Source: a virus
Lineage: Duplodnaviria > Heunggongvirae > Uroviricota > Caudoviricetes
Strand: one strand, 5' to 3'
IMG/VR virus record: IMGVR_UViG_2690316285_000009
Length of the DNA: 39,278 nucleotides
This document shows, piece after piece, positions 1,121 through 38,983 of the stretch. Position 1 is the first letter of the stretch, and every line of letters starts with the position of its first letter. The position numbers and the translations under genes were made by a program. Under the pieces are notes generated by a model. That model was not told where the DNA came from, did not search any database, and worked only from the letters and a program-made list of their open reading frames with translations.

Positions 1121-1309
1121 TTGATTTATTTAATTGATACAACAAATAACACGAAATGTCATTAGCGAAAATTTATGAGTTTGATCACTAATTTTAAACG
1201 GTGCTGTAACGCATAAGTGCTGAATGATTGTACATTTGAATACCGCAAAGCAAACAAATCAACTAATTTATAGAAGTCAATTGGTTAATTGCCAGCGTAA
1301 GAGGCTGCT

Positions 1310-1603
1310 ATGGACAATCATGTAACGACGAGAAATCGAAAAATGATTGAAAATGCGGAAATCTATAATGATTATTTTTCCGATTATTCAGATGCCTGCA
1401 AATACAGTTCGAGTGCGGGAGAGTTCATATGCTTCAACTTTTTTATTAAATCTTATGTTTTTCCTCCACAGCAAGAAGATGGAGGTGTGCCACCTCCTGA
1501 AATCACTTTGCACCGTATAGCCTCCGTCTCAATGATGGAGCAACAGGCTAATGAGCTGTATAGCATTCTGGGAACGATTCTACAAAAGCGTGAATCGGAC
1601 TAA
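1310..1603 (+). CDS. Hypothetical protein (97 aa) in AT-rich cargo DNA, opposite strand to phage genes
   Basis: ORF with AAGAGG Shine-Dalgarno 6 nt upstream of ATG; markedly AT-rich relative to the phage backbone; no recognisable motif. Confidence 0.45.
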   Translation: MDNHVTTRNRKMIENAEIYNDYFSDYSDACKYSSSAGEFICFNFFIKSYVFPPQQEDGGVPPPEITLHRIASVSMMEQQANELYSILGTILQKRESD

Positions 1604-2387: not shown

Positions 2388-4442
2388 TTACGCGTTATTC
2401 ACTTCCACCACGATACTGTCAATCAGTACCGGGTAAGTCGCATTTTTAGTGATATCGGTCACGCGCAACTTGTCTGCCGTAAACGTGCCGACCGGAGACT
2501 GCGACAGCATGAATGGTGTCCCGTCCTTACCATCAATGACCGGCGTCACCTCAATACTGTTGTTACCGGCAAAACGGAAGCCCAGCGTATGCCATTCGTT
2601 ATTAAATGCGCCGAATGACCCCAGCTTCGTGTTCTGCGCCGTGTTTCCTTTGTGATACATCACGTTAAGGTCTGTGGCATCGCTCTGTACGTAGAACGAT
2701 GCCAGCAGGTTATGACCGGCATTTCCTTCCAGAGTAACCCCTTGCGGCAGGGCAGAAACCGGCCAGTACAGCGCCAGTGCGTACTGATTAGCCGTAAGCG
2801 CGCCATCGAGTTTAAAACGACAACTGACAAGACCACCTTTACCCAGCAGGTCCGCACCATTACCAGCATCATGCTCAAGGTACCAGGGGGCTCTTCCTGT
2901 TTCCTTGGTCAGTTTCATTGCCTTACCCCCGCTGGCTCCGGCATCATCCACGATTTGAGCCTTGCCACCTCCGGCAGCCCAACCCTGTGGTGTCAACCGT
3001 CCTTCAGACTCAGATGCCCGGTAAGCAAATAGCGTACTCATCGTCGTGGTGTCTGCGGGTGGCGTGGACGGTTTTGATGGTGTATCAGGTGACGGCTTCT
3101 CATCCGGTGGTGTCACGGTCTGCCCGCGCATCAGTTCAGCCGTGCGCCCTGCATGGAGCATAATAGCTGAGGCCAGACGGTCTGAAATGACGCCCCTGCG
3201 TGCCCATGAGCTGAAATGGCTGTCACGCTGTGTCGAAACAAAACTGCCCTGGGTTCGGGATGCTGCACCGTAATACCCGACAGCCACAATATCCGGGTCT
3301 TCCGCCGGAGCATTCGTTGGCGTGCTCTGTCCATTCTCATCCGTCAGGAACGGTACAAAGAAAATTTTCTGTGCTTCCTTGCCTTTGTAGCCACCGTATA
3401 CTGCCTCATATTTATCGGTGCCAGCGTTTTTCCAGTAATACGTGGTATCACCGCAAATCCACGGCACCGTGGTGGCATTTCCACTCACGCACTGCGCAGC
3501 AAGCGGAGCCTGGTCAGTTCTGAACTGCTGAACCATGGCCGTGAATAAACTATTATGCTGCTGGCTTCCTGAGGCAAGGTCTGCCTCTCCCTGCATCCAG
3601 ACCACAGCCAGAAGTTTGTTTTTCGGGTTTTTCGCCAGCGCGACTTTGGTGCGGCTTACCAGGTCCTGATACAGAGGTTTACCGGCCCCCCAGCGTGAAG
3701 AATCAGCGGAAGCACCGCTGGCCTCACTGAATGAGCCGTCGGCTCCAGTGGTGAATGCTGACCCGCCACGACAACAGGGCACCAGAAGTATCCCGGCATT
3801 CTGTGGGATATAGGGAAGCAGTTTTTTGGCAATATGCAACCCCTGACCGACAGTCCCGTACTGGCCTTTTGCCAGATCAGCTTTCGGGTGGTTTATCCCG
3901 CTCATATCCTGAACATCATGCAGGCAGTGGTCTGCCGGAATGATGTCGTTGTATGTACACGACGTACCGTTGGGCGTTACCGTACTGCGGCGTGCCAGTT
4001 GCTTAATGCGTGGGTCCGGGCGGTCAAACGAATCCGGTAACGGCAGCCCCTCGCCGTAGGCCATGCCATTTGACTGACCCGCGAGAATGACAACAAAGTA
4101 ATATTCCGGCTCTGAACTGCTGCCATTCGTGCTACCGGAAGGCCCGGCGTTATCCGGTGCATTCCAGTCGGAGGGCGTGAGCGTTCCGGCCACGTCAGAT
4201 GTGATTGGAATGATGCCAGTCACGCCTGAACTGGTGATTTCTGCACTGGGATTACCGGATACCGGCATTACCCATAATGGCTCTTTCGTGCTGAAGCGGA
4301 TCACGCAGTCTGCGAAGGTGATCCCCCCTTTATTACCCGAAGGGCGGAAAGGGCTTTCAATAAATGCCACCGTGCCACCGGCAACCTTGACTGAAAACTC
4401 TCCGGGCATGGCGGAGAGCATTTTCCACTTGGAGTCTGACAT
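2388..4442 (-). CDS. Multi-domain SGNH/SASA-family carbohydrate O-acetylesterase (684 aa): N-terminal domain, esterase core, Pro/Thr-rich linker, C-terminal roughly 200-aa domain of unknown type
   Basis: Motifs in the translation: VVILAGQSNGMAYGEG (GQSN catalytic-serine block), VVWMQGEADLASG (QGE block), RDSHFS (D-x-H block) in the order expected for SGNH/SASA esterases; linker PPDEKPSPDTPSKPSTPPADTTT; no N-terminal signal peptide. Confidence 0.7.
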   Translation of the reverse strand: MSDSKWKMLSAMPGEFSVKVAGGTVAFIESPFRPSGNKGGITFADCVIRFSTKEPLWVMPVSGNPSAEITSSGVTGIIPITSDVAGTLTPSDWNAPDNAGPSGSTNGSSSEPEYYFVVILAGQSNGMAYGEGLPLPDSFDRPDPRIKQLARRSTVTPNGTSCTYNDIIPADHCLHDVQDMSGINHPKADLAKGQYGTVGQGLHIAKKLLPYIPQNAGILLVPCCRGGSAFTTGADGSFSEASGASADSSRWGAGKPLYQDLVSRTKVALAKNPKNKLLAVVWMQGEADLASGSQQHNSLFTAMVQQFRTDQAPLAAQCVSGNATTVPWICGDTTYYWKNAGTDKYEAVYGGYKGKEAQKIFFVPFLTDENGQSTPTNAPAEDPDIVAVGYYGAASRTQGSFVSTQRDSHFSSWARRGVISDRLASAIMLHAGRTAELMRGQTVTPPDEKPSPDTPSKPSTPPADTTTMSTLFAYRASESEGRLTPQGWAAGGGKAQIVDDAGASGGKAMKLTKETGRAPWYLEHDAGNGADLLGKGGLVSCRFKLDGALTANQYALALYWPVSALPQGVTLEGNAGHNLLASFYVQSDATDLNVMYHKGNTAQNTKLGSFGAFNNEWHTLGFRFAGNNSIEVTPVIDGKDGTPFMLSQSPVGTFTADKLRVTDITKNATYPVLIDSIVVEVNNA

Positions 4443-4513: not shown

Positions 4514-4547
4514 AATTCAAAAAAGCGTCACGGTACTTTTGGTGACG
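4514..4547 (-). terminator. Rho-independent terminator at the 3-prime end of gin
   Basis: Stem CGTCAC/GTGACG with 10-nt loop followed, on the minus strand, by a 6-T run; the gin stop codon lies inside the stem. Confidence 0.6.
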
Positions 4548-5100
4548 GAGCTGGTGAGGCAGGAAAATAACGATAAAGGGTGGAAAGGCCAATATCAAAT
4601 ATCAGTGCGATTTGTTTACGGGACTCGCCATTAGCCAGCAAACGGGCGATTTGCTCCCGCTCTTTCTCTGTCAGTTTCTGAGGTCTGCCGCCATGACGCC
4701 CCTGAGCACGGGCAGCAGCAAGACCCGCGCGTGTACGTTCAATAATGAGTTCCCGCTCCATTTCCGCCAGCGCGCCCATTATATGGAAAAAGAAACGTCC
4801 CATGGGAGTGGATGTATCAATATTGTCCGTAATGCTGCGGAAGTTAACGCCGCGTTGCCGGAGTTCTTCTGTTAAAAGGACAAGGTGCTGCATACTGCGT
4901 CCAAGGCGATCCAGTTTCCAGACCAGCAGGGTATCCCCTGGCCGGAGTCGCTTTAATGCGCGTTTAAGTCCGGGACGCTCCCTTGTCTTACCGCTTATTC
5001 TGTCTTCGAAAAACAGCTCACATCCTGCACATTCCAGCGCATTTCTTTGTAGCGCCGTATTCTGGTCATTTGTTGACACCCTGATATACCCAATCAGCAT
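4528..5100 (-). CDS. gin: Gin-type serine DNA invertase
   Basis: N-terminus MLIGYIRVSTNDQ with the catalytic serine context typical of Hin/Gin/Cin resolvase-invertases; C-terminal helix-turn-helix; sits next to an invertible segment bounded by gix-like sites. Confidence 0.9.
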   Translation of the reverse strand: MLIGYIRVSTNDQNTALQRNALECAGCELFFEDRISGKTRERPGLKRALKRLRPGDTLLVWKLDRLGRSMQHLVLLTEELRQRGVNFRSITDNIDTSTPMGRFFFHIMGALAEMERELIIERTRAGLAAARAQGRHGGRPQKLTEKEREQIARLLANGESRKQIALIFDIGLSTLYRYFPASPAPSPKVP

Positions 5101-7585: not shown

Positions 7586-8658
7586 GTGATTTCTCCTACC
7601 GTCAGCAGCTCACTGTCTCCCGCCTGAACTGACGTCAGCGGACTGCGCACTTCAAAATCCTCCAGATTTTTCACCCCTGCCACCGCCCGCCAGAAAGACG
7701 ACGGCAGAACCAGACCGCCGGGCCGGGATTCGTTATACAACAGGTCGGTCAGCGCCTGTTTTACGGCCGCCTGATTCTCCGGTGTTTTCGGGATGATCCT
7801 GATGCTGAAGGGCACCGGCTTATTGGTCAGTTTAAACACGGTCACCGTCGGCCCCAGAGGCTGTCCGACAGGCTGGCCGGTCGCCGGATCATCATGACTG
7901 CGGATATAATCCGCCACCCGCTGAACATCACCGTCACCGGGGAAAATATCCGGGTTATTATCCTGAACAAACGTTACCCCCACGCAGCCCGCCTGCGGCC
8001 ATTCCGGGCGGCACCATGCCCGCGTCACGCCCGGCACTTCACGCGCCCAGCGTTCAAAATCATACTGCGTGCCGCCGGACGGTGGATTCTGCACCCGGAA
8101 AACCAGACGGGAAAGCAGCTCCGGCACGGTTTCCACATCCGCACCACCGGTGATCCCCGTTCCGGTCACCGTGGCCGTCTGGTTGATCCCCGCCTGCGGT
8201 GTGATAAATGTCAGTTTTGTCCCTGCCGGGGCATTCCCCGCACGACCGGCACTTTCGGCTTCCACACTGACATTCAGCGTACCGGCCTTACCGGTCAGTG
8301 AGGTGGTGATACGGTAAACCACGCCATCACTTCGCTGGAGAAGCACACCTTCCTTGATCCCCGCATCCGTGGTCAGCATCAGCTGAACCGGCCCGTCCCC
8401 CCGAGAGGCAGGCTTACGCATGACGCCCCAGAATGCACAGTGTTTCAGCAGTTCGGCTTCATCGGCTTCGGTCGGGATGATCTGACGCGCAATCCAGGCC
8501 AGATGCTCATGCTCCTGAGCAGATAACCCTGCCTGAGCGTAAGCAATGGCATTCAGGGTGGTTTCATTCACACCCGGCTGCGAGCCGGGCAGGCGCTGGC
8601 TGATATCCTGCTGTGTCTGCGTGATTAACTGTGCCAGCGGTAAAGGCTGATAAGGCAT
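7576..8658 (-). CDS. Baseplate J-like protein (Mu gp47-like)
   Basis: 360-aa product at the conserved position in the baseplate module. Confidence 0.7.
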   Translation of the reverse strand: MPYQPLPLAQLITQTQQDISQRLPGSQPGVNETTLNAIAYAQAGLSAQEHEHLAWIARQIIPTEADEAELLKHCAFWGVMRKPASRGDGPVQLMLTTDAGIKEGVLLQRSDGVVYRITTSLTGKAGTLNVSVEAESAGRAGNAPAGTKLTFITPQAGINQTATVTGTGITGGADVETVPELLSRLVFRVQNPPSGGTQYDFERWAREVPGVTRAWCRPEWPQAGCVGVTFVQDNNPDIFPGDGDVQRVADYIRSHDDPATGQPVGQPLGPTVTVFKLTNKPVPFSIRIIPKTPENQAAVKQALTDLLYNESRPGGLVLPSSFWRAVAGVKNLEDFEVRSPLTSVQAGDSELLTVGEITWL

Positions 8659-27910: not shown

Positions 27911-28262
27911 TCGTGGCCGCCTTACTGATTTGTGAAATGAGTTGCAGGGTGCGTTGCTGGTTTGCCAGCACCAGACGGGCTTCGTCCCGTTCACGCACAA
28001 GCACATGATTATTGTCCTCAAGGCGCTGCGTCTTCTGGTGCATTCCCCATACCACGGCAGCCAGCACGCTCATCACCCCCAGCGCCGCCATACAGCCTCC
28101 GGCAATCAGGGCCGGTAAGGGATTGTTCACCGCAGACACAGCACACCCCGCAGCAGCACAACGGCACACAGCAGCGCAATCATGAGCGGTCGCCAGAAGC
28201 GGTTCAGACTTTCGGCAAATCGTAACGACATAACCATTCATCCGCCGAACGGCGGGCCTCAA
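27741..28262 (-). CDS. Rz-like inner-membrane spanin
   Basis: N-terminal transmembrane segment, long coiled-coil-like body, overlaps the endolysin 3-prime end and contains the Rz1-like frame. Confidence 0.6.
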   Translation of the reverse strand: MRPAVRRMNGYVVTICRKSEPLLATAHDCAAVCRCAAAGCAVSAVNNPLPALIAGGCMAALGVMSVLAAVVWGMHQKTQRLEDNNHVLVRERDEARLVLANQQRTLQLISQISKAATNEKQQNMQHSEEQQSIVRRSLATVPAASVPVPDDVADRVRRAVCEIRAGEAGADPR

Positions 28263-28704
28263 GACCGGGGAGTTTTACCCCCTTTGAATAAATCCAGCGG
28301 ATATACTGCTTACAGGACGCGGGCATCTGCCCGGCATTGATAAGGCGCAGGAGCGTGGAGTTGCGAAAGTTCGTTTCACCGGCCCAGAAAATCCAGGAGG
28401 CCAGCGCCACCGTCTGACCACGGGTAAGCGGCACCTGAACATGACGATCGATAGCCGCAAAGGCCCATTTCATGTCCTTTTCCAGCAGCTCCAGACACTC
28501 TTCATCAGTTTTTGTCATCCCCGGTTTCACATCCGGGCCGGTATGGCCGTAACAGATGGTGGGGGTGCCGGTGGGATCAATGTACGTGGTGTTTTCTTTC
28601 CCTTCCCAGTAGCCGGTGTAGTGCGTGGCAATAGTGAACGTCCCGGCTCCGGCCAGAACAAGGGCAATCAGCTTTTTACGCAGTGGCGCGGGGAGTTTTG
28701 GCAT
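28204..28704 (-). CDS. lys: Endolysin, T4-lysozyme-type (GH24) with N-terminal signal-anchor-release-like segment
   Basis: Lysozyme-like catalytic region (..TICYGHTG..EECLELLEKDM..) preceded by a weakly hydrophobic Gly/Ala-rich N-terminus (LIALVLAGAGTFTIA). Confidence 0.85.
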   Translation of the reverse strand: MPKLPAPLRKKLIALVLAGAGTFTIATHYTGYWEGKENTTYIDPTGTPTICYGHTGPDVKPGMTKTDEECLELLEKDMKWAFAAIDRHVQVPLTRGQTVALASWIFWAGETNFRNSTLLRLINAGQMPASCKQYIRWIYSKGVKLPGLEARRSADEWLCRYDLPKV

Positions 28705-28775: not shown

Positions 28776-29198
28776 TCAGAAAAGCCGGGGCTGCGTGCGC
28801 TCCTGATGCAGGCGACGCTGGTTGCGGATAACGGAGTAAATCTGCGTCTCTGACATCTGGTAATGGCGGCGCAGGGTTTCAATTTTTTCGCCCTGGCTCC
28901 AGCGGGAAAAAATTTCATTATTGCGCAGTTCGGTGAAAAGGGATTCACCGACCGGGAGATAATAACCACGCCCGCCCATGTACCCGGCCTGTGCGGCTGC
29001 AACCTTACGGGCAAGCATTCCCGCCTGAGCAGGTTCAATCCCCTGACGGTGCAGTTCAGCACTGATCACATCAACCAGGTCCCGCAGCGTGCCGGGCCAG
29101 TTCTTTTTCAGCTCATCATCAGGAATATCATCCAGACGGTCAATCAGCGCGTGCAGCTGTTCGCTGTCACCAAACATGCTCATCTGTGTTTCAGCCAT
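28776..29198 (-). CDS. Mor/C-family transcriptional activator (single copy)
   Basis: 140-aa product with C-terminal helix-turn-helix; position between the GemA-like gene and the lysis/late genes, as for Mu mor/C. Confidence 0.8.
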   Translation of the reverse strand: MAETQMSMFGDSEQLHALIDRLDDIPDDELKKNWPGTLRDLVDVISAELHRQGIEPAQAGMLARKVAAAQAGYMGGRGYYLPVGESLFTELRNNEIFSRWSQGEKIETLRRHYQMSETQIYSVIRNQRRLHQERTQPRLF

Positions 29199-29268
29199 AC
29201 CCGCCTCCGGTCATCATTACACAGGGCAAGTTTAAAATAAAAATCCCGCGCTGTGGCGGGATTTGGGG

Positions 29269-29781
29269 TTAAAAGGGGGAGGATTCTTCATACAGCCTGC
29301 AAACGCGCTCATAACTCATCACTGTACGCGCTGACATCCCCAGCACATCCAGCATCTTGCGGCGGTGCCAGCGTTTGAGACGCTCCAGCACATCAGAGGC
29401 CAGCGCGGGGTGTTGTTCCAGCCACTGCCAGTTAGCCACACCTTCGCCGCCGTTCTGAGCGACCGTCTGCGATTTCACCCAGCGGTTAAGGGCTGTTTCC
29501 CCGCCATCAGAGATAAAGCCCTGCCGGTGCATCACCTTCCAGATGGCGCGAATTTTGGCGGTCACCGTACCCGGTTTTAAGGCCCGGTTAACCGGCTTCT
29601 GACGCACTTTAAAACCGCGTTTTTTGAAAACATCCAGCACGCGGGATAACTCATCCGGTGACATATCCCGGCAACTGGGTTTGCCGGTGGCTGCCAGTAG
29701 TACGGATGTGTAGGTCTCATGGTCAAGCTGTAGATCGCGTTTTGCGACATGTATTAAGGTAATCAGGGAAGCGCGATTCAT
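29269..29781 (-). CDS. GemA-like early protein (Mu gp16-like)
   Basis: 170-aa product immediately upstream of the Mor/C-family gene. Confidence 0.55.
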   Translation of the reverse strand: MNRASLITLIHVAKRDLQLDHETYTSVLLAATGKPSCRDMSPDELSRVLDVFKKRGFKVRQKPVNRALKPGTVTAKIRAIWKVMHRQGFISDGGETALNRWVKSQTVAQNGGEGVANWQWLEQHPALASDVLERLKRWHRRKMLDVLGMSARTVMSYERVCRLYEESSPF

Positions 29782-29845
29782 TATCGTGTCTCCGTAACAA
29801 CAGGCGGCATGGCAACGCCGCCCGGATAAAACTAAAGGTATCGAT

Positions 29846-30256
29846 ATGAAAATAGATTACGATGAAGTATTAAGTATTCTCACAACTTTTCAGGATGCTG
29901 AAACACCTTTCCTTACACTACAGGATCTGGGCATGGCTGAGGCAGAAGGAGAGGAAAAGGATAAAAAAGTTTTTCATCTTATGCTTCTCGCTGATAATGG
30001 CTCAATTGTTAATGGTGATATGCAGTCAGAAACACCCAAATATATTGGTTTCTTTTTCCATTCTCTGGGCGTTGGTTTCAGAAACACGCCCATTATGCTT
30101 ACCCAGCAGGGGCATGATTTAGCTAACGCCCTGAGAAAAAAACCAATCCTTGAAAGAATCAAAAAGGAGTTTACAGACGCACCATTTGATCTAATTAAAG
30201 AAGTTACCAAATCAATGTTAACCAGGTTCGTCAAAGAACGTATTGGGATTGACTGA
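29846..30256 (+). CDS. Hypothetical protein (136 aa) in an AT-rich island, inverted relative to the early operon
   Basis: AAAGG Shine-Dalgarno upstream of ATG; strongly AT-rich compared with flanking phage genes; convergent with and overlapping the 3-prime end of the 30218-30526 gene. Confidence 0.5.
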   Translation: MKIDYDEVLSILTTFQDAETPFLTLQDLGMAEAEGEEKDKKVFHLMLLADNGSIVNGDMQSETPKYIGFFFHSLGVGFRNTPIMLTQQGHDLANALRKKPILERIKKEFTDAPFDLIKEVTKSMLTRFVKERIGID

Positions 30257-30526
30257 ACAACTTAATTCAGCCAGTAATCGCAGGGCGGCGACAGCCGCCT
30301 GCTTGTCACTTCTTTTAGCTATTTCCGCAAGAGTATGCACAATCCATAACGGACTTAACGCCACGGCTGAATCCAGAATCATGTCATCCATAATAATTTC
30401 TGGCATATCCCGCTTGTCACATTCTTTATCCATAAAAGAAACGAATTTCTCTGCATCTTCCGGTTTCATGCCTCCGGCGATAAGGATTTTGCGATATTCA
30501 TAAGACGATCTTAATTCAATACTCAT
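30218..30526 (-). CDS. Hypothetical early protein (102 aa)
   Basis: ORF with AGGTGA Shine-Dalgarno upstream; AT-rich. Confidence 0.45.
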   Translation of the reverse strand: MSIELRSSYEYRKILIAGGMKPEDAEKFVSFMDKECDKRDMPEIIMDDMILDSAVALSPLWIVHTLAEIAKRSDKQAAVAALRLLAELSCSVNPNTFFDEPG

Positions 30527-30541
30527 TATTCACCTGCCTGC

Positions 30542-30892
30542 TTAATCTGTTTCCAGTGCTTTGCTACGGGCTATAGCCTCACATTCAAAAAATACCGACT
30601 CCGGCACGCGCTCTTTTAATTCACGAACAAGGAAATCATTAACGCGTTCATGACGTCTTATATTTCTTTCCTTTTCCTCCTGGCGCAATACAGCAAGGCG
30701 GTATTCAACAGCCCGGCGTTGTTTCTGAAAGACAGCCAGTGCTTTTCTGGCAGCATTACGCCATGCATCATCGCCACATGCTGCGTATTCAAGCTGAAAT
30801 TTAATCTCTTCAATAGTTTCTTTGATTTTTGCCAGCAAGCTAAGACAGTCGCTTATTGTCTCCAGCTTTTCATTATCAATATAACTTCTCAC
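30542..30892 (-). CDS. Hypothetical early protein (start proposed at GTG 30892, translationally coupled GTGA overlap with upstream stop)
   Basis: GGGAGG Shine-Dalgarno 7 nt upstream of an in-frame GTG that overlaps the TGA stop of the upstream gene. Confidence 0.45.
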   Translation of the reverse strand: MRSYIDNEKLETISDCLSLLAKIKETIEEIKFQLEYAACGDDAWRNAARKALAVFQKQRRAVEYRLAVLRQEEKERNIRRHERVNDFLVRELKERVPESVFFECEAIARSKALETD

Positions 30893-31218
30893 GCATTCAC
30901 CTCCCGTAATTCCGGTAAAGCCGAAATATGACACCAGTGCGTCACCTGTCCGTCTTCATCTTCAAGGCAGGCTCCGGTTTCTTCATCAACAAAAAAGCCT
31001 TCATACCCCATATGGCCGATGCGCAGCTCCTGACGGTGACCATACTGAACAATCAGCACGACAGCCTCCATATCAGGTGGGAAAGTATCATTCAGTGAAT
31101 GCCAGGGATAACCGCGTAAATCCCCGAAATAAACACCGGTCAGCGTTCCGCCACAGAGCGGCATTCCGGCGGCACACACAAGAGGTTCATCTGATTCAAC
31201 AAATAAGGTCGTTATCAT
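30889..31218 (-). CDS. Hypothetical early protein (109 aa)
   Basis: ORF in the early operon with start/stop overlap to neighbours. Confidence 0.45.
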   Translation of the reverse strand: MITTLFVESDEPLVCAAGMPLCGGTLTGVYFGDLRGYPWHSLNDTFPPDMEAVVLIVQYGHRQELRIGHMGYEGFFVDEETGACLEDEDGQVTHWCHISALPELREVNA

Positions 31219-32963: not shown

Positions 32964-33494
32964 TTATTTATTCAGTCCGGCGTCCTGTTCAAAAGGCTCG
33001 ACATAAAAACTTTCAGCGCCTTTATTCACCTTGATACCGGCAATGCCTTTCACAGCATCCGGCTCCGCCAGGACGGCTTCCTTGTTCACTTCCTCTTTCG
33101 TGCGGATGAAACGCTCAAGCCCCATACGGCGCAGCATTTCAATCACACCTTCCACATCACGGCTGACGCTGCATGATGGCGTTCCCAGCCGCCATGACAC
33201 CGTTCCGGTGGTCAGATTGGCTGTTTTGGTTTTGCCGCCGTTCGTCAGCTCATCACGGTTGGTTTTGCACCAGTCCTGAATCCCTTTAAAAAGCACTTTG
33301 ATTTGCTTTTTAAGATTTTCAATCTGCGGCGTATAACGGGCGGTGATTTCTGCCACTTCGTCATTCATCGCCGTTTCCAGGCGCAGCGCCTCTCGCTGAA
33401 TATCTCCCAGGGTGCGGATATCACGGCTGACTTCTTCCCGGGTCTGCGGTGCCGCCTCGGCTGCGGCCTTTAATTTTGTAACGCGTTTAGCCAT
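32964..33494 (-). CDS. gam: Gam host-nuclease inhibitor (Ku-like DNA-end-binding protein)
   Basis: 176-aa product with the segments RLETAMNDEVAEIT and CKTNRDELTNGGKTKTANLTTGTVSWR that I recognise as matching Mu Gam along its length. Confidence 0.9.
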   Translation of the reverse strand: MAKRVTKLKAAAEAAPQTREEVSRDIRTLGDIQREALRLETAMNDEVAEITARYTPQIENLKKQIKVLFKGIQDWCKTNRDELTNGGKTKTANLTTGTVSWRLGTPSCSVSRDVEGVIEMLRRMGLERFIRTKEEVNKEAVLAEPDAVKGIAGIKVNKGAESFYVEPFEQDAGLNK

Positions 33495-34622: not shown

Positions 34623-34886
34623 TTAGCTGACTTGTTTCGCACCAACAGAACGGCATATTCCGCTGTAAACTTCTGTCGCACCTTCGCGATCAAGTCCGGC
34701 AGATATCACCATTCGTGTGCGGTCATTAAATTCAAAAAGTAAATCGCCACATTCTTTATTTTCGGCCAGTGAAATCACCTTCACGTTATCGAAATTAACC
34801 AGGTAAAAGCGTCCGTAAATATCAGGAATATTAAATNNNNNNNNNNNNNNNNNNNNNNNNNNNNNNNNNNNNNCCGCCATAATCAC
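34623..34886 (-). CDS. Hypothetical early protein (interrupted by N-run 34837-34873)
   Basis: ORF immediately downstream of B; N-terminal part unreadable. Confidence 0.4.
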   Translation of the reverse strand: MIMAXXXXXXXXXXXXXFNIPDIYGRFYLVNFDNVKVISLAENKECGDLLFEFNDRTRMVISAGLDREGATEVYSGICRSVGAKQVS

Positions 34887-35815
34887 ACCTGTGAGAGTAA
34901 TTCAGGGTTGGTATAAACCTCTTTAAAGGCCGCATTAATATGTTTTTCTGTCAGCGCCGCGCCTTCACCGCTGGCGGTGAGCCACGCCTGGTTAAGCGTA
35001 TGTGTCAGAACGCGTAACGCTCCCGGCTTTTCAGCGATAGCCTGCATGACGGCCAGCTCGGCCTCACCACTGATCCCCCACGCCATGGCAATGGCCAGCA
35101 CATCCGCCTTTTTGGCCTTGCGAAGTTGTTTTGTACGGGCAAGACGGCTGAACAGGCGCGATAAATCATCAAAGGCGCGGCGTCCACCTTTAAACAATCC
35201 GCGCGGGTTACCAATAAGCACCATCCCGATCCCCGTGGCGTCCTGAATTGCCCGGAGTTGCTCCAGACCGTCAATACCAAGATGATCCGCCTCATCCACA
35301 ATCACCAGTCCACGCGTTCCCATCAGGCGACGGCGGATGGCGCGGGATAATGCCCCTTTGTTCGCGCGGGTGTAATCAATCCCCAGCGCATCGGCCAGCT
35401 CCAGCAGACACTCCGTGACGCTGGAGTGCGCGGGTGACAGGGTGATCATCCAGGTGTTTGGTTGCTCCTGGCAGTAATTACGGGCAGTGGCCGTTTTACC
35501 CACACCCGGTACGCCCACAATAACGTTAATACAGCCCATCAGGCGAACCGCCTGAAACAGTGCGCGCAGCTCCTGGACTGTCTGAGTTTCCACAAACTGC
35601 GGCGGTTCCGGCAGTGCGCTTTGTTTATTCCAGTTCTCATACCAGGAGCGCAGGGAAGCAGCCACAGCGGCGTTATCGCCTTTATATTTCCCCTTGCGGA
35701 AAGCCGATAATGTGCCGTCGGAAATTCCCGCCTCTCTGGCGATGGCATACTGCGTCAGCACGCCGCCATCAATAAGTTCATCAATGGTCTTGATTACATC
35801 GTTTATATCGGTCAT
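34883..35815 (-). CDS. B: MuB-like AAA+ ATPase transposition target-DNA activator
   Basis: Walker A GVPGVGKT, Walker B-like VIVDEADHL, N-terminal helix-turn-helix; matches Mu B along its length; GAGGT Shine-Dalgarno upstream. Confidence 0.9.
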   Translation of the reverse strand: MTDINDVIKTIDELIDGGVLTQYAIAREAGISDGTLSAFRKGKYKGDNAAVAASLRSWYENWNKQSALPEPPQFVETQTVQELRALFQAVRLMGCINVIVGVPGVGKTATARNYCQEQPNTWMITLSPAHSSVTECLLELADALGIDYTRANKGALSRAIRRRLMGTRGLVIVDEADHLGIDGLEQLRAIQDATGIGMVLIGNPRGLFKGGRRAFDDLSRLFSRLARTKQLRKAKKADVLAIAMAWGISGEAELAVMQAIAEKPGALRVLTHTLNQAWLTASGEGAALTEKHINAAFKEVYTNPELLSQV

Positions 35816-35890: not shown

Positions 35891-37981
35891 TCAGGCCAGA
35901 GGGTCATTTTCTTTTAATTTCGCTTCAAGCAGCTGCAATCCCCGCTGGAAATTACGCTCGTATTCTTCATCAGGTTCATCGTCAGCGACCGGTTGCTGAA
36001 CGATCACCGTATTACCCACAGGGCGGTATATATTTTCCAGCCACGGCTCCTGTGGCTTGTGCTCCAGCACGTTGACAATCTCATCCTCGGCATCACGGAT
36101 TTTTTCCTCTGCGCGTTTACGCATGCCTTTAAGGCGCTGCTGCTGTTTGTGGTATTCCGCGCTGACCGGGAAGGCTTCGCGTTTATTGCCGTCCCATACC
36201 GCCTCGCAAATCACGCTGCCATCCAGGCGACGTACGGTAATTCGTTCGGCATCATGAATGTCATAGCTGATAAGCACCTTACGACCATGCTCGTCACGCA
36301 GCTCGGGCGCGTAGTAAATATTATTCAGCCAGCGTATTTCACAGCGTCTTACAGGGCGTTCCACCATCGGCCGGAACATATCCCGCAGCTCAACATCGGA
36401 CAGCCATTCAATTTCCGTGTCCTCTTCCGCCAGGCGTTTTTTTCTGAACTCCGCCGGGCTGTAATGCTTGCCGTTCGGCTTCACCGGTAATTCATCGTGC
36501 GGCCGGTTGTTGTACCACTCAACACCATCACGAATGGCATCAATCAGTTCAGCCCAGGACGGTGAATCACGCATCGCTGACTGCTGCCGGGCGTTCAGCC
36601 GTTTGCCCTGTTGCAGGGCAGTAAATGCCGAGCGTAAATCGCGGTTGGTTTTGCGTAACGTCTCGCGATCTGCACCTTTCCCGAAATAGGTGCGGTATTT
36701 ACGGGCTATGCGCATCGGTAATGTGCGGTTAAGCCGTTCGATAATGCCTCGTCCCTGCGGATTACCGGCAATCCCGGTCGGGTGATTAATCCCCAGTCGC
36801 GGCAGTATCCCCACAACCTCCTTATCCAGGATGTCGGCGGTTTCCCCGGAGCCGTTATCCGAGTAATACAGAAACGGTTTGCCGTGATGGCGAATGCCGT
36901 GCTGTATGGCACCGGCTACGGCGAAAACATTTTCAGCCAGGTCAAGGCTCCAGCCCACCACAAAGCGCGTGCCACCGTCGATAACAAAGGTCACTTCCGG
37001 TGCAAATGGCCGACCGTGAACCGGGTGTGCGCATTTCAGCTTCATGCCGTGACCGTCACCAATCCAGACATAATTCACCGGCATTTTTGACCAGTCGCGG
37101 CGCGTGAATCCCTCAAGCTGGCGGTATTCACTGCCGGTCACCCGGCCTTTTTGTTTCACCACTTCCGGCAGTTTCTTCATTGCGCGGCGAATGGTGTCAT
37201 AAGACGGCATGATATCGAGCATATAAGGCTCATCAGCGTGCCGGTGCTGCCATTCAGCGACAAAATCCTCGTAAGCCTCGGTCATTGGTCGGCCGTTTGA
37301 CTGGCGATACTGCGCCAGAAATTCGGGCAGCCAGTTAATATCTTCGGCTTTTATTTCCTGGCGCTTACCCGGTGCCAGTAAAAGCAGGCGTTCAGCGGCG
37401 TTCTGCGCCTTGTTAAAGGCCGCAATCCAGCGTTTCAGCGTGATTTCACTTAACGCGCGGCTGTTTCCCTTTTTGGCGTTCGCCGTCTCAACCATTGCCA
37501 CAATGCGCTCGTCCAGCTGCGAACGTGCCAGGTTGTCAACGATAAACCGGATAGCCTTCGCACAGCTGAAACCAGGTTGTTGCGCGACTTTCAGAACTTC
37601 GCTGACGATCGCGATTCGTGCATCAGCCACCTGGCGCTGGTTTTCAGTCAGGGCATTAAGGCGTTCGACCATCAGTTGTGGTGATCCGCGATATGCCTCC
37701 ACCGCATCAACCACGGCAGGCGAGCGTCTGGCCTTTGTCACCACTGGAGCCGGTGATTCATCGACTTTTTGAGTCATCAGTTGCAGGGCGTAGCGTTCAC
37801 GTAATGCCTGCTGCGTCACTTCAGGTAAACAGTCGATGCTGTATTCAGTTGCTTTAGAGCCTGAGCGACGACGGGAACAACAGCTTTTCCCTTGTACGTA
37901 ACGTTGTAATGCCTGGCGAATACCTTTTGTTGTAGCAGGCATTCCGGGCGCACCAATCAGTTCTTTTGCAATGACATACAT
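35891..37981 (-). CDS. A: MuA-like DDE transposase
   Basis: 696-aa product with the ..WIGDGHGMKLK.. core region typical of the Mu transposase family; start abuts the ner stop codon. Confidence 0.9.
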   Translation of the reverse strand: MYVIAKELIGAPGMPATTKGIRQALQRYVQGKSCCSRRRSGSKATEYSIDCLPEVTQQALRERYALQLMTQKVDESPAPVVTKARRSPAVVDAVEAYRGSPQLMVERLNALTENQRQVADARIAIVSEVLKVAQQPGFSCAKAIRFIVDNLARSQLDERIVAMVETANAKKGNSRALSEITLKRWIAAFNKAQNAAERLLLLAPGKRQEIKAEDINWLPEFLAQYRQSNGRPMTEAYEDFVAEWQHRHADEPYMLDIMPSYDTIRRAMKKLPEVVKQKGRVTGSEYRQLEGFTRRDWSKMPVNYVWIGDGHGMKLKCAHPVHGRPFAPEVTFVIDGGTRFVVGWSLDLAENVFAVAGAIQHGIRHHGKPFLYYSDNGSGETADILDKEVVGILPRLGINHPTGIAGNPQGRGIIERLNRTLPMRIARKYRTYFGKGADRETLRKTNRDLRSAFTALQQGKRLNARQQSAMRDSPSWAELIDAIRDGVEWYNNRPHDELPVKPNGKHYSPAEFRKKRLAEEDTEIEWLSDVELRDMFRPMVERPVRRCEIRWLNNIYYAPELRDEHGRKVLISYDIHDAERITVRRLDGSVICEAVWDGNKREAFPVSAEYHKQQQRLKGMRKRAEEKIRDAEDEIVNVLEHKPQEPWLENIYRPVGNTVIVQQPVADDEPDEEYERNFQRGLQLLEAKLKENDPLA

Positions 37982-38231: not shown

Positions 38232-38398
38232 ACTTCCTCTATTCTAAAAAGTTACCCGCGCGGATATTCGTGCGGATATCTGTACGGGTAAATAATAGAA
38301 CAAACAAAAGAACCAAATCAAGGTATTTTGTTCTTTTTATTCTTTGCGGTGTTTTTGTTATTAATATCAATAAGATAAATAAAAAGGAACCTGAGAGC
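38232..38398. promoter_or_regulatory. Divergent early/repressor promoter-operator region between ner and c
   Basis: AT-rich 167-bp divergent intergenic region; dyad TTACCCG..CGGGTAA at 38252-38289 enclosing repeated CGGATAT units. Confidence 0.6.
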
Positions 38399-38983
38399 AT
38401 GAACATGAAAAACAGTTCTTTTCTCGACGAAGGAAAAGAACCAGTGATCGAACGGATTTTTCGTCTTGCAGAGCGTTACAAATCGAGAAGTGAGGCGGCT
38501 AGAGCATGGGGAATAAACGTTCAGACATTGCAGAACTACTACAAAAGGAGAAACAATCAGCCGCCACCACAACCAAGAAAGCACCATCTCCAGAACATTG
38601 CAGAAAGAGAACATGTATCTATGGAGTGGCTGGTCAATGGTTATGGTGATGAGCCAAGCATGAAAAAAGAACCAATTGAACAAACAAAAAGAACAAAAAA
38701 ACAAAGAATTGATGATAGTGATTCCATCATCATGAGGGCGTGGGACTCGCTAACTTCATCTGAACAAGAGATTTTGTCCAACTTATTGATCAGAAAAGGG
38801 GCCGAACTACTAACCGTTTTGCTTGATACAGATATTCAAAAACTGCACTCATTGAGCGGAGTCAAAAGAGCACTAGCATTGAGTCTACAAGAGTTACCCG
38901 ATGATACTGTAAGAGAGATTTATGAAGAATGTGAAGCTAAGGTTAATCATTTAAATGTAACCCAGAAAAAGGCTGGTGCGTAA
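38399..38983 (+). CDS. c: Mu-type repressor c (start proposed at ATG 38399; the ORF track extends to 38270)
   Basis: Divergent from ner/A/B; C-terminal part resembles the Mu repressor pattern; AAGGAA Shine-Dalgarno upstream of the ATG at 38399; the longer ORF would begin inside the operator region. Confidence 0.7.
   Translation: MNMKNSSFLDEGKEPVIERIFRLAERYKSRSEAARAWGINVQTLQNYYKRRNNQPPPQPRKHHLQNIAEREHVSMEWLVNGYGDEPSMKKEPIEQTKRTKKQRIDDSDSIIMRAWDSLTSSEQEILSNLLIRKGAELLTVLLDTDIQKLHSLSGVKRALALSLQELPDDTVREIYEECEAKVNHLNVTQKKAGA

Follow-up and report, generated by a model that had tools for sequence, protein, structure and literature searches.

Why should one gene in the early operon of a Mu-like prophage face the wrong way, and is it a gene at all? 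The question is raised by the virus record IMGVR_UViG_2690316285_000009 of IMG/VR, a stretch of 39,278 nucleotides that we refer to as the window and that represents a near-complete Mu-like prophage of E. coli/Shigella. Just before gemA, on the strand opposite to that of the early genes, lies an open reading frame (ORF) of 136 amino acids (aa), called the inverted gene in what follows. As noticed in a preliminary description made from the DNA letters only, it converges on a 102-aa early gene and overlaps its 3' end; the overlap is exactly 39 bp (30218-30256). We propose that this ORF is a true accessory gene, dispensable and independently transcribed, which occupies a conserved inverted slot and encodes a trans-acting product. 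Taken as a whole, this reading has, in our estimate, an even chance of being right.

On comparative grounds, the inverted ORF is a genuine gene, because its dN/dS is about 0.1, it belongs to a large family, its product has a confidently predicted fold and its Shine-Dalgarno sequence is conserved. The dN/dS values between lineages are 0.09-0.15, which indicates purifying selection, and the Shine-Dalgarno sequence is found 6-8 nt upstream of the start codon in every lineage. The exact 136-aa protein is present on at least 1000 contigs. It matches phrog_585 with an E-value of 7e-18 (positions 1-126 of 128), whereas its match to the Pfam family DUF2513 (PF10711), which covers model positions 1-96 of 100 at 23.6 bits (E 6.6e-5), stays below the gathering cutoff of 29.6. 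PF10711 is matched by 91 of the 119 full-length homologues (best 9e-15), and one homologue with 50% identity has a precomputed PF10711 match. The gene is already annotated in RefSeq, where the identical protein bears the name 'DUF2513 domain-containing protein'. Because of the full-length phrog_585 match, the PF10711 matches of the homologues and the RefSeq name, we file the product as a divergent DUF2513 member. When 1.84 billion cluster representatives were searched with a profile, 251 proved to be related at E<=1e-3, mostly 125-150 aa long. The literature search returned one paper mentioning DUF2513, a marker-gene study in which the family is named a single time, and nothing on function.

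The gene is also patchily distributed. Among 5426 complete E. coli genomes, the prophage backbone was found in 232, whereas the inverted gene itself is present in only six to seven, and the whole 2.1-kb query was matched in six. The SE11-type backbone, which is close to Mu, displays the same presence/absence polymorphism, with DUF2513 in 5/81 genomes. Across the two backbones, the DUF2513 gene is carried by ~3-6% of the E. coli prophages. Furthermore, a near-identical phage contig (L058; L-numbers designate the loci that were compared) has a clean deletion of ~375 nt (L058 2290-2545 compared with 29826-30203 of the window), by which the inverted gene has lost its ribosome-binding site together with ~119 of its codons. 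The 102-aa reading frame, the GC hairpin in the spacer before gemA and the ribosome-binding site of gemA are all retained. L058 represents a natural knock-out. A second type of disrupted allele arises by loss of one A from a run of seven (A7) inside the gene: the resulting 115-aa frameshift allele, which ends ahead of the 39-bp overlap, is found on 125 + 12 + 9 contigs. Strain AF39 has a one-base gap in the A7 run, and L015 has a frameshift at the same place. These 115-aa alleles are either a real, slippage-prone inactivation or a recurrent homopolymer sequencing error. We regard the inverted gene as dispensable because of the natural deletion in L058 and the frameshift allele.

While the gene comes and goes among close relatives, its position recurs over large evolutionary distances. 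At least eight other Mu-like lineages have a homologue with 32-54% identity that is placed and oriented in the same way, and DUF2513 fills the slot in loci L005, L007, L018-L029, L033, L046-L048 and L077-L085. The homologues with 45-54% identity stand head-to-head with gemA at a distance of 30-66 nt and tail-to-tail with a gene of the phrog_1988 family, to which the 102-aa gene belongs; homologues of this gene adjoin the inverted gene in all lineages examined. The overlap amounts to 39 bp in L005, L007, L021, L022, L024, L028 and L029, 38 bp in L046-L048, 30 bp in L018-L020 and 18 bp in L033. True Mu-type prophages carry an allele that is only 32% identical, with a 63-nt spacer and a 38-bp overlap. 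In L033, a Kluyvera/Enterobacter-type phage, the DUF2513 gene comes after gemA, but still faces a unit ending in mor, and its 18-bp overlap is with a distant phrog_1988-like gene on which it converges. When 76 viral contigs were sampled with gemA as the anchor, the 600 nt preceding gemA formed 34 sequence clusters; DUF2513 was found before gemA in 12 loci, and it was inverted in all of them. The preliminary description would have abandoned its accessory-gene proposal had all relatives shown the same arrangement, transcribed merely as antisense noise. Many relatives do share the arrangement, but not all, and the ORF is not noise.

DUF2513 is not the sole occupant of the slot. In the Mu-type prophage of strain FDAARGOS_1059, RefSeq has an inverted 88-aa gene immediately before gemA, and the same ORF, 95% identical, lies on the complementary strand of Mu itself (~7899-8162 of AF083977, our L032). 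This 88-aa ORF is a full-length match to phrog_8747 and is annotated as SfMu_16 in SfMu. Related inverted genes (phrog_32893) fill the slot in other contigs, and inverted genes unrelated to DUF2513 were found there in Mu, SfMu, Yersinia Mu-like phages, L057, L080 and L093. SfMu_16 and the 88-aa ORF of Mu resemble the gene of the window in being inverted just before gemA, in having the same GC hairpin in a spacer of ~70 nt, and in converging on and overlapping the preceding early gene. They differ from it in that the protein is shorter (79-115 aa) and unrelated: the hhalign comparison of the phrog_8747-type cargo with DUF2513 found no relation (probability 0.3%). A search of the SfMu paper with terms aimed at the inverted gene gave no match. 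The Mu reference record AF083977 annotates a forward 55-aa ORF (Mu_54) at the slot, for which there is no family match; in an older Mu record, a putative ORF of the complementary strand is listed at this place. How Mu is annotated at this point may have to be reconsidered. Judged by these comparisons, the Mu family has an inverted gene ahead of gemA as one of its features; several unrelated cargos can take this place, DUF2513 among them.

Outside Mu-like phages, DUF2513 is a single-gene cargo of varied mobile elements. In a lambdoid Klebsiella phage, its gene is located between the genes for lysis and those for terminase; other members reside in integrase-bearing or P4-like islands, on E. coli plasmids of ~48 kb with phage genes, and where an ABC-transporter operon ends. 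On the Aeromonas veronii plasmid pAV1812-1 (L041, 2534-3405), the gene of a distant family member and that of a RelE/ParE toxin overlap at the 3' end of the latter. Both of these genes are downstream of a TraY-like gene, with which they may form a three-gene unit. A separate observation concerns positions 242482-242566 of the E. coli genome NZ_CP145714.1, which has only an 85-nt fragment, with no annotated feature, that matches 29790-29874 of the window, i.e. the spacer hairpin and the first codons of the inverted gene. It may be the remnant of a degraded prophage.

How large is the unit that is exchanged? The preliminary description had envisaged a single AT-rich island of about 1.1 kb with three genes. 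Its low GC content was borne out by the composition analysis it had called for: 29782-30950 has 42.3% GC compared to 53.1% for the whole window and is in the lowest 1.3% of windows of equal length. The single three-gene island, in contrast, is ruled out by an alignment with two O157-type prophages, in which only ~29725-30280 is swapped. Divergence from these relatives starts near 29720, within gemA, and the exchanged block runs from the first ~20 gemA codons through the spacer and the inverted gene into the 102-aa gene, of which it takes in the last ~22 codons. In the O157-type prophages, two small forward genes (98 aa and 65 aa) lie between the counterpart of the 102-aa gene and gemA. That counterpart encodes a 110-aa protein, to which the 102-aa protein is 93% identical in residues 1-76, the sequences being divergent beyond. 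The 102-aa gene and the gene upstream of it have 92-94% nucleotide identity across ~230 related prophages. By this measure they are conserved early genes, and only the inverted gene is variable. The inverted gene is also the most AT-rich of the region, its GC content of 38.7% being close to that of the repressor-side gene on the plus strand (38.5%), while the values are 42.4% for the 102-aa gene, 43.3% for the third gene and 55.2% for gemA. Low GC is not unique to this part of the window, as the repressor region and the right end are equally or more AT-rich.

The third gene of the supposed island was listed as an ORF of 130 aa starting from GTG 30934, and the preliminary description adopted this start. 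Its true start is most likely GTG 30892, giving 116 aa, because this codon is preceded by the ribosome-binding site GGGAGGTG, its GTGA overlaps the stop codon of the preceding gene, RefSeq calls a 351-nt gene in the identical prophage and the phrog_6158 match covers just this part of the ORF (Table 1).

The slot is accompanied by GC-rich hairpins. On the early strand, the hairpin in the 69-nt spacer between the inverted gene and gemA is followed by the tail TGTTGTTAC and then by the gemA ribosome-binding site GGAG. The folding z-scores of this spacer (-1.75 for the plus strand and -2.1 for the minus strand) are modest when taken alone, but the hairpin is kept, with an altered stem sequence, in Mu, SfMu, L005, L046, L057, L077 and L080, whatever the cargo. 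The L057 counterpart was called a terminator by the scan (7-bp stem and TTTTTT, early direction); in the window, this T tail has been degraded to TGTTGTTAC. The Mu counterpart is located inside the annotated semi-early promoter (AF083977), so that the same pre-gemA junction is marked as a transcriptional boundary in Mu, although the semi-early promoter concerns gemA-mor transcription in the early direction and not the inverted gene. These features suggest a terminator-like or attenuator-like element that would act before gemA in the early direction. Since the hairpin is independent of the cargo and survives the L058 deletion, it belongs to the gemA junction rather than to the cassette. The preliminary description was thus correct in reporting a hairpin here, but its role as a border of the island has to be given up. 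A DUF2513 operator is ruled out as well, given that the hairpin is present with unrelated cargo and outlives the deletion of the gene. Comparison of the spacers revealed no cis element specific to DUF2513 lineages, each lineage having some inverted repeat, and the Rfam search gave only a chance sub-threshold match to a snoRNA.

A further, strong hairpin resembling an intrinsic terminator sits in the 70-nt gap between gemA and mor, two genes that overlap in Mu; an equivalent site follows gemA in L057. With the spacer hairpin on the other side, gemA is therefore bracketed, and mor in this lineage would need read-through or a promoter of its own. Finally, a GC hairpin downstream of the inverted gene's stop codon is encoded by the conserved Ala-rich motif DKxAAVAAL (or AAAIAA) of the 102-aa protein. 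Its pairing is maintained by complementary third-position changes in all lineages (L003, L005, L007, L018, L024, L028, L033 and L046), which suggests selection on DNA or RNA structure within the coding region. The counterparts in L005 and L028 are followed by TTTTTAT, the T tail in the window is poor, and in Mu and SfMu, where the 102-aa homologue does not adjoin the inverted gene, the counterpart is weaker (5 bp). This hairpin is a plausible candidate for the terminator of the inverted gene.

The structure of the 136-aa product, whose prediction the preliminary description had recommended, was modelled with AlphaFold2. A first model from 4 sequences was poor (pLDDT 62) and was superseded by one built on an alignment of 119 sequences (pLDDT 97). 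The latter predicts a MarR/PadR-like winged-helix core followed by three C-terminal helices and thus has the winged helix-turn-helix fold of MarR/PadR-type regulators. Sequence searches do not place the protein among them: neither the protein nor its 119 relatives match the Pfam MarR or PadR families, and a PDB sequence search gave no match. Foldseek found only weak winged-helix matches in the PDB (E at least 0.014, TM ~0.4), and the BFVD structure search likewise gave weak winged-helix matches and no similar characterised viral structure. The likeness to MarR/PadR/TubR-type proteins is therefore one of fold, with a weak global match and without sequence membership. Within the family, His44, Gly68, Arg84 and Gly89 are near-invariant, and His90 and Asp91 are also well conserved.

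According to our preferred explanation, the slot extends from the phrog_1988 early gene, the 3' end of which is overlapped, to the terminator-like hairpin that precedes the gemA ribosome-binding site. The inverted gene would be transcribed alone from a weak or activator-dependent promoter in the 5' end of gemA, the spacer hairpin would form a stem-loop in its 5' leader, and the plus-strand transcript would stop at the hairpin within the 102-aa gene. As the inverted gene faces the early operon, its expression would be confined to the lysogen, in which the early promoter is quiet. Upon induction, converging early transcription and antisense RNA would switch it off. As a winged-helix factor, the product would most likely bind nucleic acid or a protein partner in trans, serving the prophage in an accessory function rather than in the core of the Mu life cycle.

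Several observations weigh against parts of this reading. The promoter search, which combined a consensus scan with a position-weight scan of 260 nt and 650 nt upstream of the inverted gene, found no sigma-70 promoter above background: the best score in the 650 nt was 6.0, and the background mean is 5.9. Expression in the lysogen is therefore pure inference on our part, and the independent regulation suggested in the preliminary description found no support in this search. A weak candidate with a conserved position, TAGATC-18-TAAnnT, lies inside gemA codons 8-17, but these codons are shared with Mu, which has no DUF2513. The rare Leu codons CTA/TTA at gemA codons 9 and 17 were dropped as a promoter mark for the same reason. 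O157-type phages, which have no inverted gene, share the hairpin that would terminate the plus-strand transcript. In contrast to MarR/PadR/TubR-type proteins, the DUF2513 family is acidic (median pI 5.3, with 79% of the members below pI 6), and the exposed positions of the recognition helix (helix 3) are mostly Asp/Glu or hydrophobic, with no basic or polar contact residues. Arg84, the sole near-invariant basic residue that was considered for DNA contact, is present in 96% of the family but replaced by Met in the E. coli/Shigella allele, where the PIRLT motif reads PIMLT; the other Mu-associated copies examined have Arg except for the L077 group. Because of the acidic character of the family and the recognition helix without basic residues, DNA binding by the modelled protein is doubtful: possible, but far from assured. 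Finally, a position conserved over such depth could point to a part played in the life cycle of Mu instead of a free-standing accessory function. Also rejected was a putative gemA promoter inside the inverted gene, the strong site TTGAGC-18-TAAGAT near 30005, which occurs in the window only and is not conserved.

How does the gene compare with accessory genes that are already known? In the moron concept of Hendrix and Juhala, lambdoid phages carry extra genes such as bor and lom of lambda and gp15 of HK97. Similar to these, the inverted gene is an extra gene in some close relatives and absent from others (six to seven genomes vs. 232 with the backbone, 5/81 on the second backbone, and the L058 deletion), it has a deviant base composition (38.7% vs. 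53.1% GC, although the neighbouring core genes are also low at 42-43%) and putative bounding signals of its own, and it is presumed to be expressed from the prophage. It departs from the lambdoid pattern in having no identifiable promoter, in sharing 39 bp with a core gene and in that the slot itself is conserved, with alternative cargos, across the deep divergence of the Mu family. The part of the moron proposal in the preliminary description that stands is that of an accessory cassette, which is patchy, AT-rich, on the opposite strand, under purifying selection and cleanly deletable.

The readings that compete with our preferred explanation all rank below it. The first is that the gene is an instrument of conflict, i.e. 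a prophage effector of superinfection exclusion, defence or anti-defence that binds a protein or nucleic-acid target. Such a role would agree with the patchy presence of a dispensable, AT-rich, opposite-strand gene in a slot that is hot-swapped between unrelated cargos, with the occurrence of the family as a lone cargo gene on phages, phage-plasmids, small plasmids and P4-like islands, and with its acidity, which is common to many inhibitor proteins. There is also a precedent: in the Pseudomonas transposable phage Fc02, overlapping genes on opposite strands of the early region were shown by experiment to mediate exclusion (PMC9936078). Fc02 is likewise a Mu-type transposable phage with overlapping opposite-strand, accessory-linked genes in the early region; however, its genes adjoin the repressor/ner region and not gemA, and the proteins are unrelated. 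Against this reading, PADLOC and NCBIfam gave no match for the 136-aa protein, BFVD offers no similar characterised viral structure to compare with, and the one DUF2513 paper found names the family just once. In addition, the gene shows no sign of an arms race, since it diverges at about the rate of gemA (46% and 45%, respectively, between the window and L024). We consider this role unlikely, although it is the best of the alternatives.

Next in probability, and also unlikely, is a local regulator: a winged-helix protein encoded divergently from gemA-mor (the 'gem' or semi-early unit of Mu) that would bind near the spacer and gate Mor and the middle/late switch. The geometry speaks for it, as every Mu-like lineage has the gene head-to-head with a unit ending in mor at a distance of 30-131 nt, even L033, and so does the MarR/PadR-like fold, for such regulators are often divergent from their targets. 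Moreover, the Mu record places the semi-early promoter in exactly this spacer, and the gem operon of Mu is reported, in references cited in PMC3820752, to be expressed in lysogens. However, the DUF2513 lineages have no cis element in common; Mu and SfMu have the spacer hairpin next to unrelated cargo, and L007, L018 and L024, with spacers of 30 nt, lack it. The acidic recognition helix and the Met found in this allele in place of the near-invariant Arg84 also tell against such a role. The protein is missing from Mu itself and from most related prophages, and elsewhere the family occurs in operons that have no divergent partner.

A related but more improbable idea is that the slot and the early-direction terminator hairpin together form a conserved regulatory device of the Mu family, in which converging transcription, and perhaps the winged-helix product, would gate read-through into gemA-mor. 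If true, the lysogeny-to-lytic switch would possess an additional, undescribed safeguard, and the swappable cargos (DUF2513, phrog_8747/32893) would provide alternative regulatory or conflict specificities.

We give very little credence to a toxin-antidote or antisense pair, in which the 136-aa and 102-aa genes would be coupled through their complementary 3' ends. The tail-to-tail overlap with a phrog_1988-family gene (39, 38, 30 or 18 bp) in all lineages and the distant family member that follows a ParE toxin gene on the Aeromonas plasmid could be taken to favour it. Nevertheless, the pair is unlikely because the 102-aa gene usually occurs alone: members of its family are found without the inverted gene in ~97% of the related E. 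coli prophages, in Mu and in L058. The frameshifted 115-aa allele, which does not reach the overlap, is common, and the two genes differ in strand and in control. No toxin-antitoxin or defence model was matched: the NCBIfam search for such models was negative, and PADLOC gave nothing for the 136-aa protein and a chance-level match (E 0.068) for the 102-aa protein. Hence, the toxin-antidote, defence and anti-defence functions suggested in the preliminary description received no support from these searches. That the ORF is no gene but a chance antisense open frame in an early-operon spacer, as its lack of a recognisable promoter and its Pfam score under the family cutoff might suggest, is next to impossible in view of the purifying selection, the large family with a confident fold, the conserved Shine-Dalgarno sequence and the number of contigs with the exact protein.

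The features of the window are collected in Table 1. Identical or near-identical prophages were found in complete E. coli genomes. Early transcription is assigned to the minus strand, as the preliminary description had assumed, because of the order and strands of the genes in the window; the tail and head genes are likewise on the minus strand.

Table 1. Positions of the slot, its hairpins and the surrounding genes in the window, and of the alternative cargo in two other loci.
Feature	Position	Strand	Basis or remark
Inverted gene, 136 aa, acidic DUF2513/phrog_585 protein	29846-30256	plus	ORF and family match
A7 run inside inverted gene	30136-30142	plus	loss of one A gives the 115-aa allele
Tail-to-tail overlap of inverted gene and 102-aa gene, 39 bp	30218-30256		ORF coordinates
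GC hairpin in spacer, GGCGGC-N8-GCCGCC, terminator-like or attenuator-like	29803-29822	minus	sequence, folds, conservation
GC hairpin within 102-aa gene, GGCGGC-GACA-GCCGCC, candidate terminator	30283-30300	plus	27 nt past stop codon of inverted gene
Intrinsic-terminator-like hairpin between gemA and mor	29241-29264	minus	9-bp stem and T-rich tail
Exchanged block	~29725-30280 (approximate bounds)		alignment with two O157-type prophages
102-aa early gene, phrog_1988	30218-30526	minus	phrog_1988 E 1e-38
116-aa early gene, phrog_6158	30542-30892	minus	phrog_6158 E 6e-54, residues 15-130 of 130-aa ORF
mom	162-1094	minus	
684-aa protein gene, SASA carbohydrate-esterase and DUF6645 domains	2388-4442	minus	
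Gin-type invertase	4528-5100	minus	
Lysozyme	28204-28704	minus	
mor	28776-29198	minus	
gemA, gp16 family, 170 aa	29269-29781	minus	Pfam GemA E 2.8e-28
gam	32964-33494	minus	
B	34883-35815	minus	
Transposase A	35891-37981	minus	
Repressor-side gene	38270-38983	plus	
phrog_8747 inverted ORF	L042 2141-2407; L045 (SfMu) 1201-1467		before gemA

At the right end of the prophage, the gene of a 684-aa SASA/DUF6645 protein between the Gin-type invertase and mom is likely to be accessory as well. The AT-rich stretch 1100-2300 beside it has plus-strand ORFs only, without a Pfam match.

Accessory morons are already familiar in temperate phages and the inverted gene is in RefSeq, so that the immediate value of our proposal is modest. 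The comparison does, however, provide a clearer map of a poorly annotated junction in the Mu early region: a slot that takes at least two unrelated cargo families and is bracketed by conserved hairpins, one of which resembles a terminator of early transcription. This is relevant to the question of how gemA-mor is insulated from the early operon. In addition, DUF2513, a family widespread on mobile elements, gains a defined natural context together with natural knock-outs in the form of the deletion and frameshift alleles.

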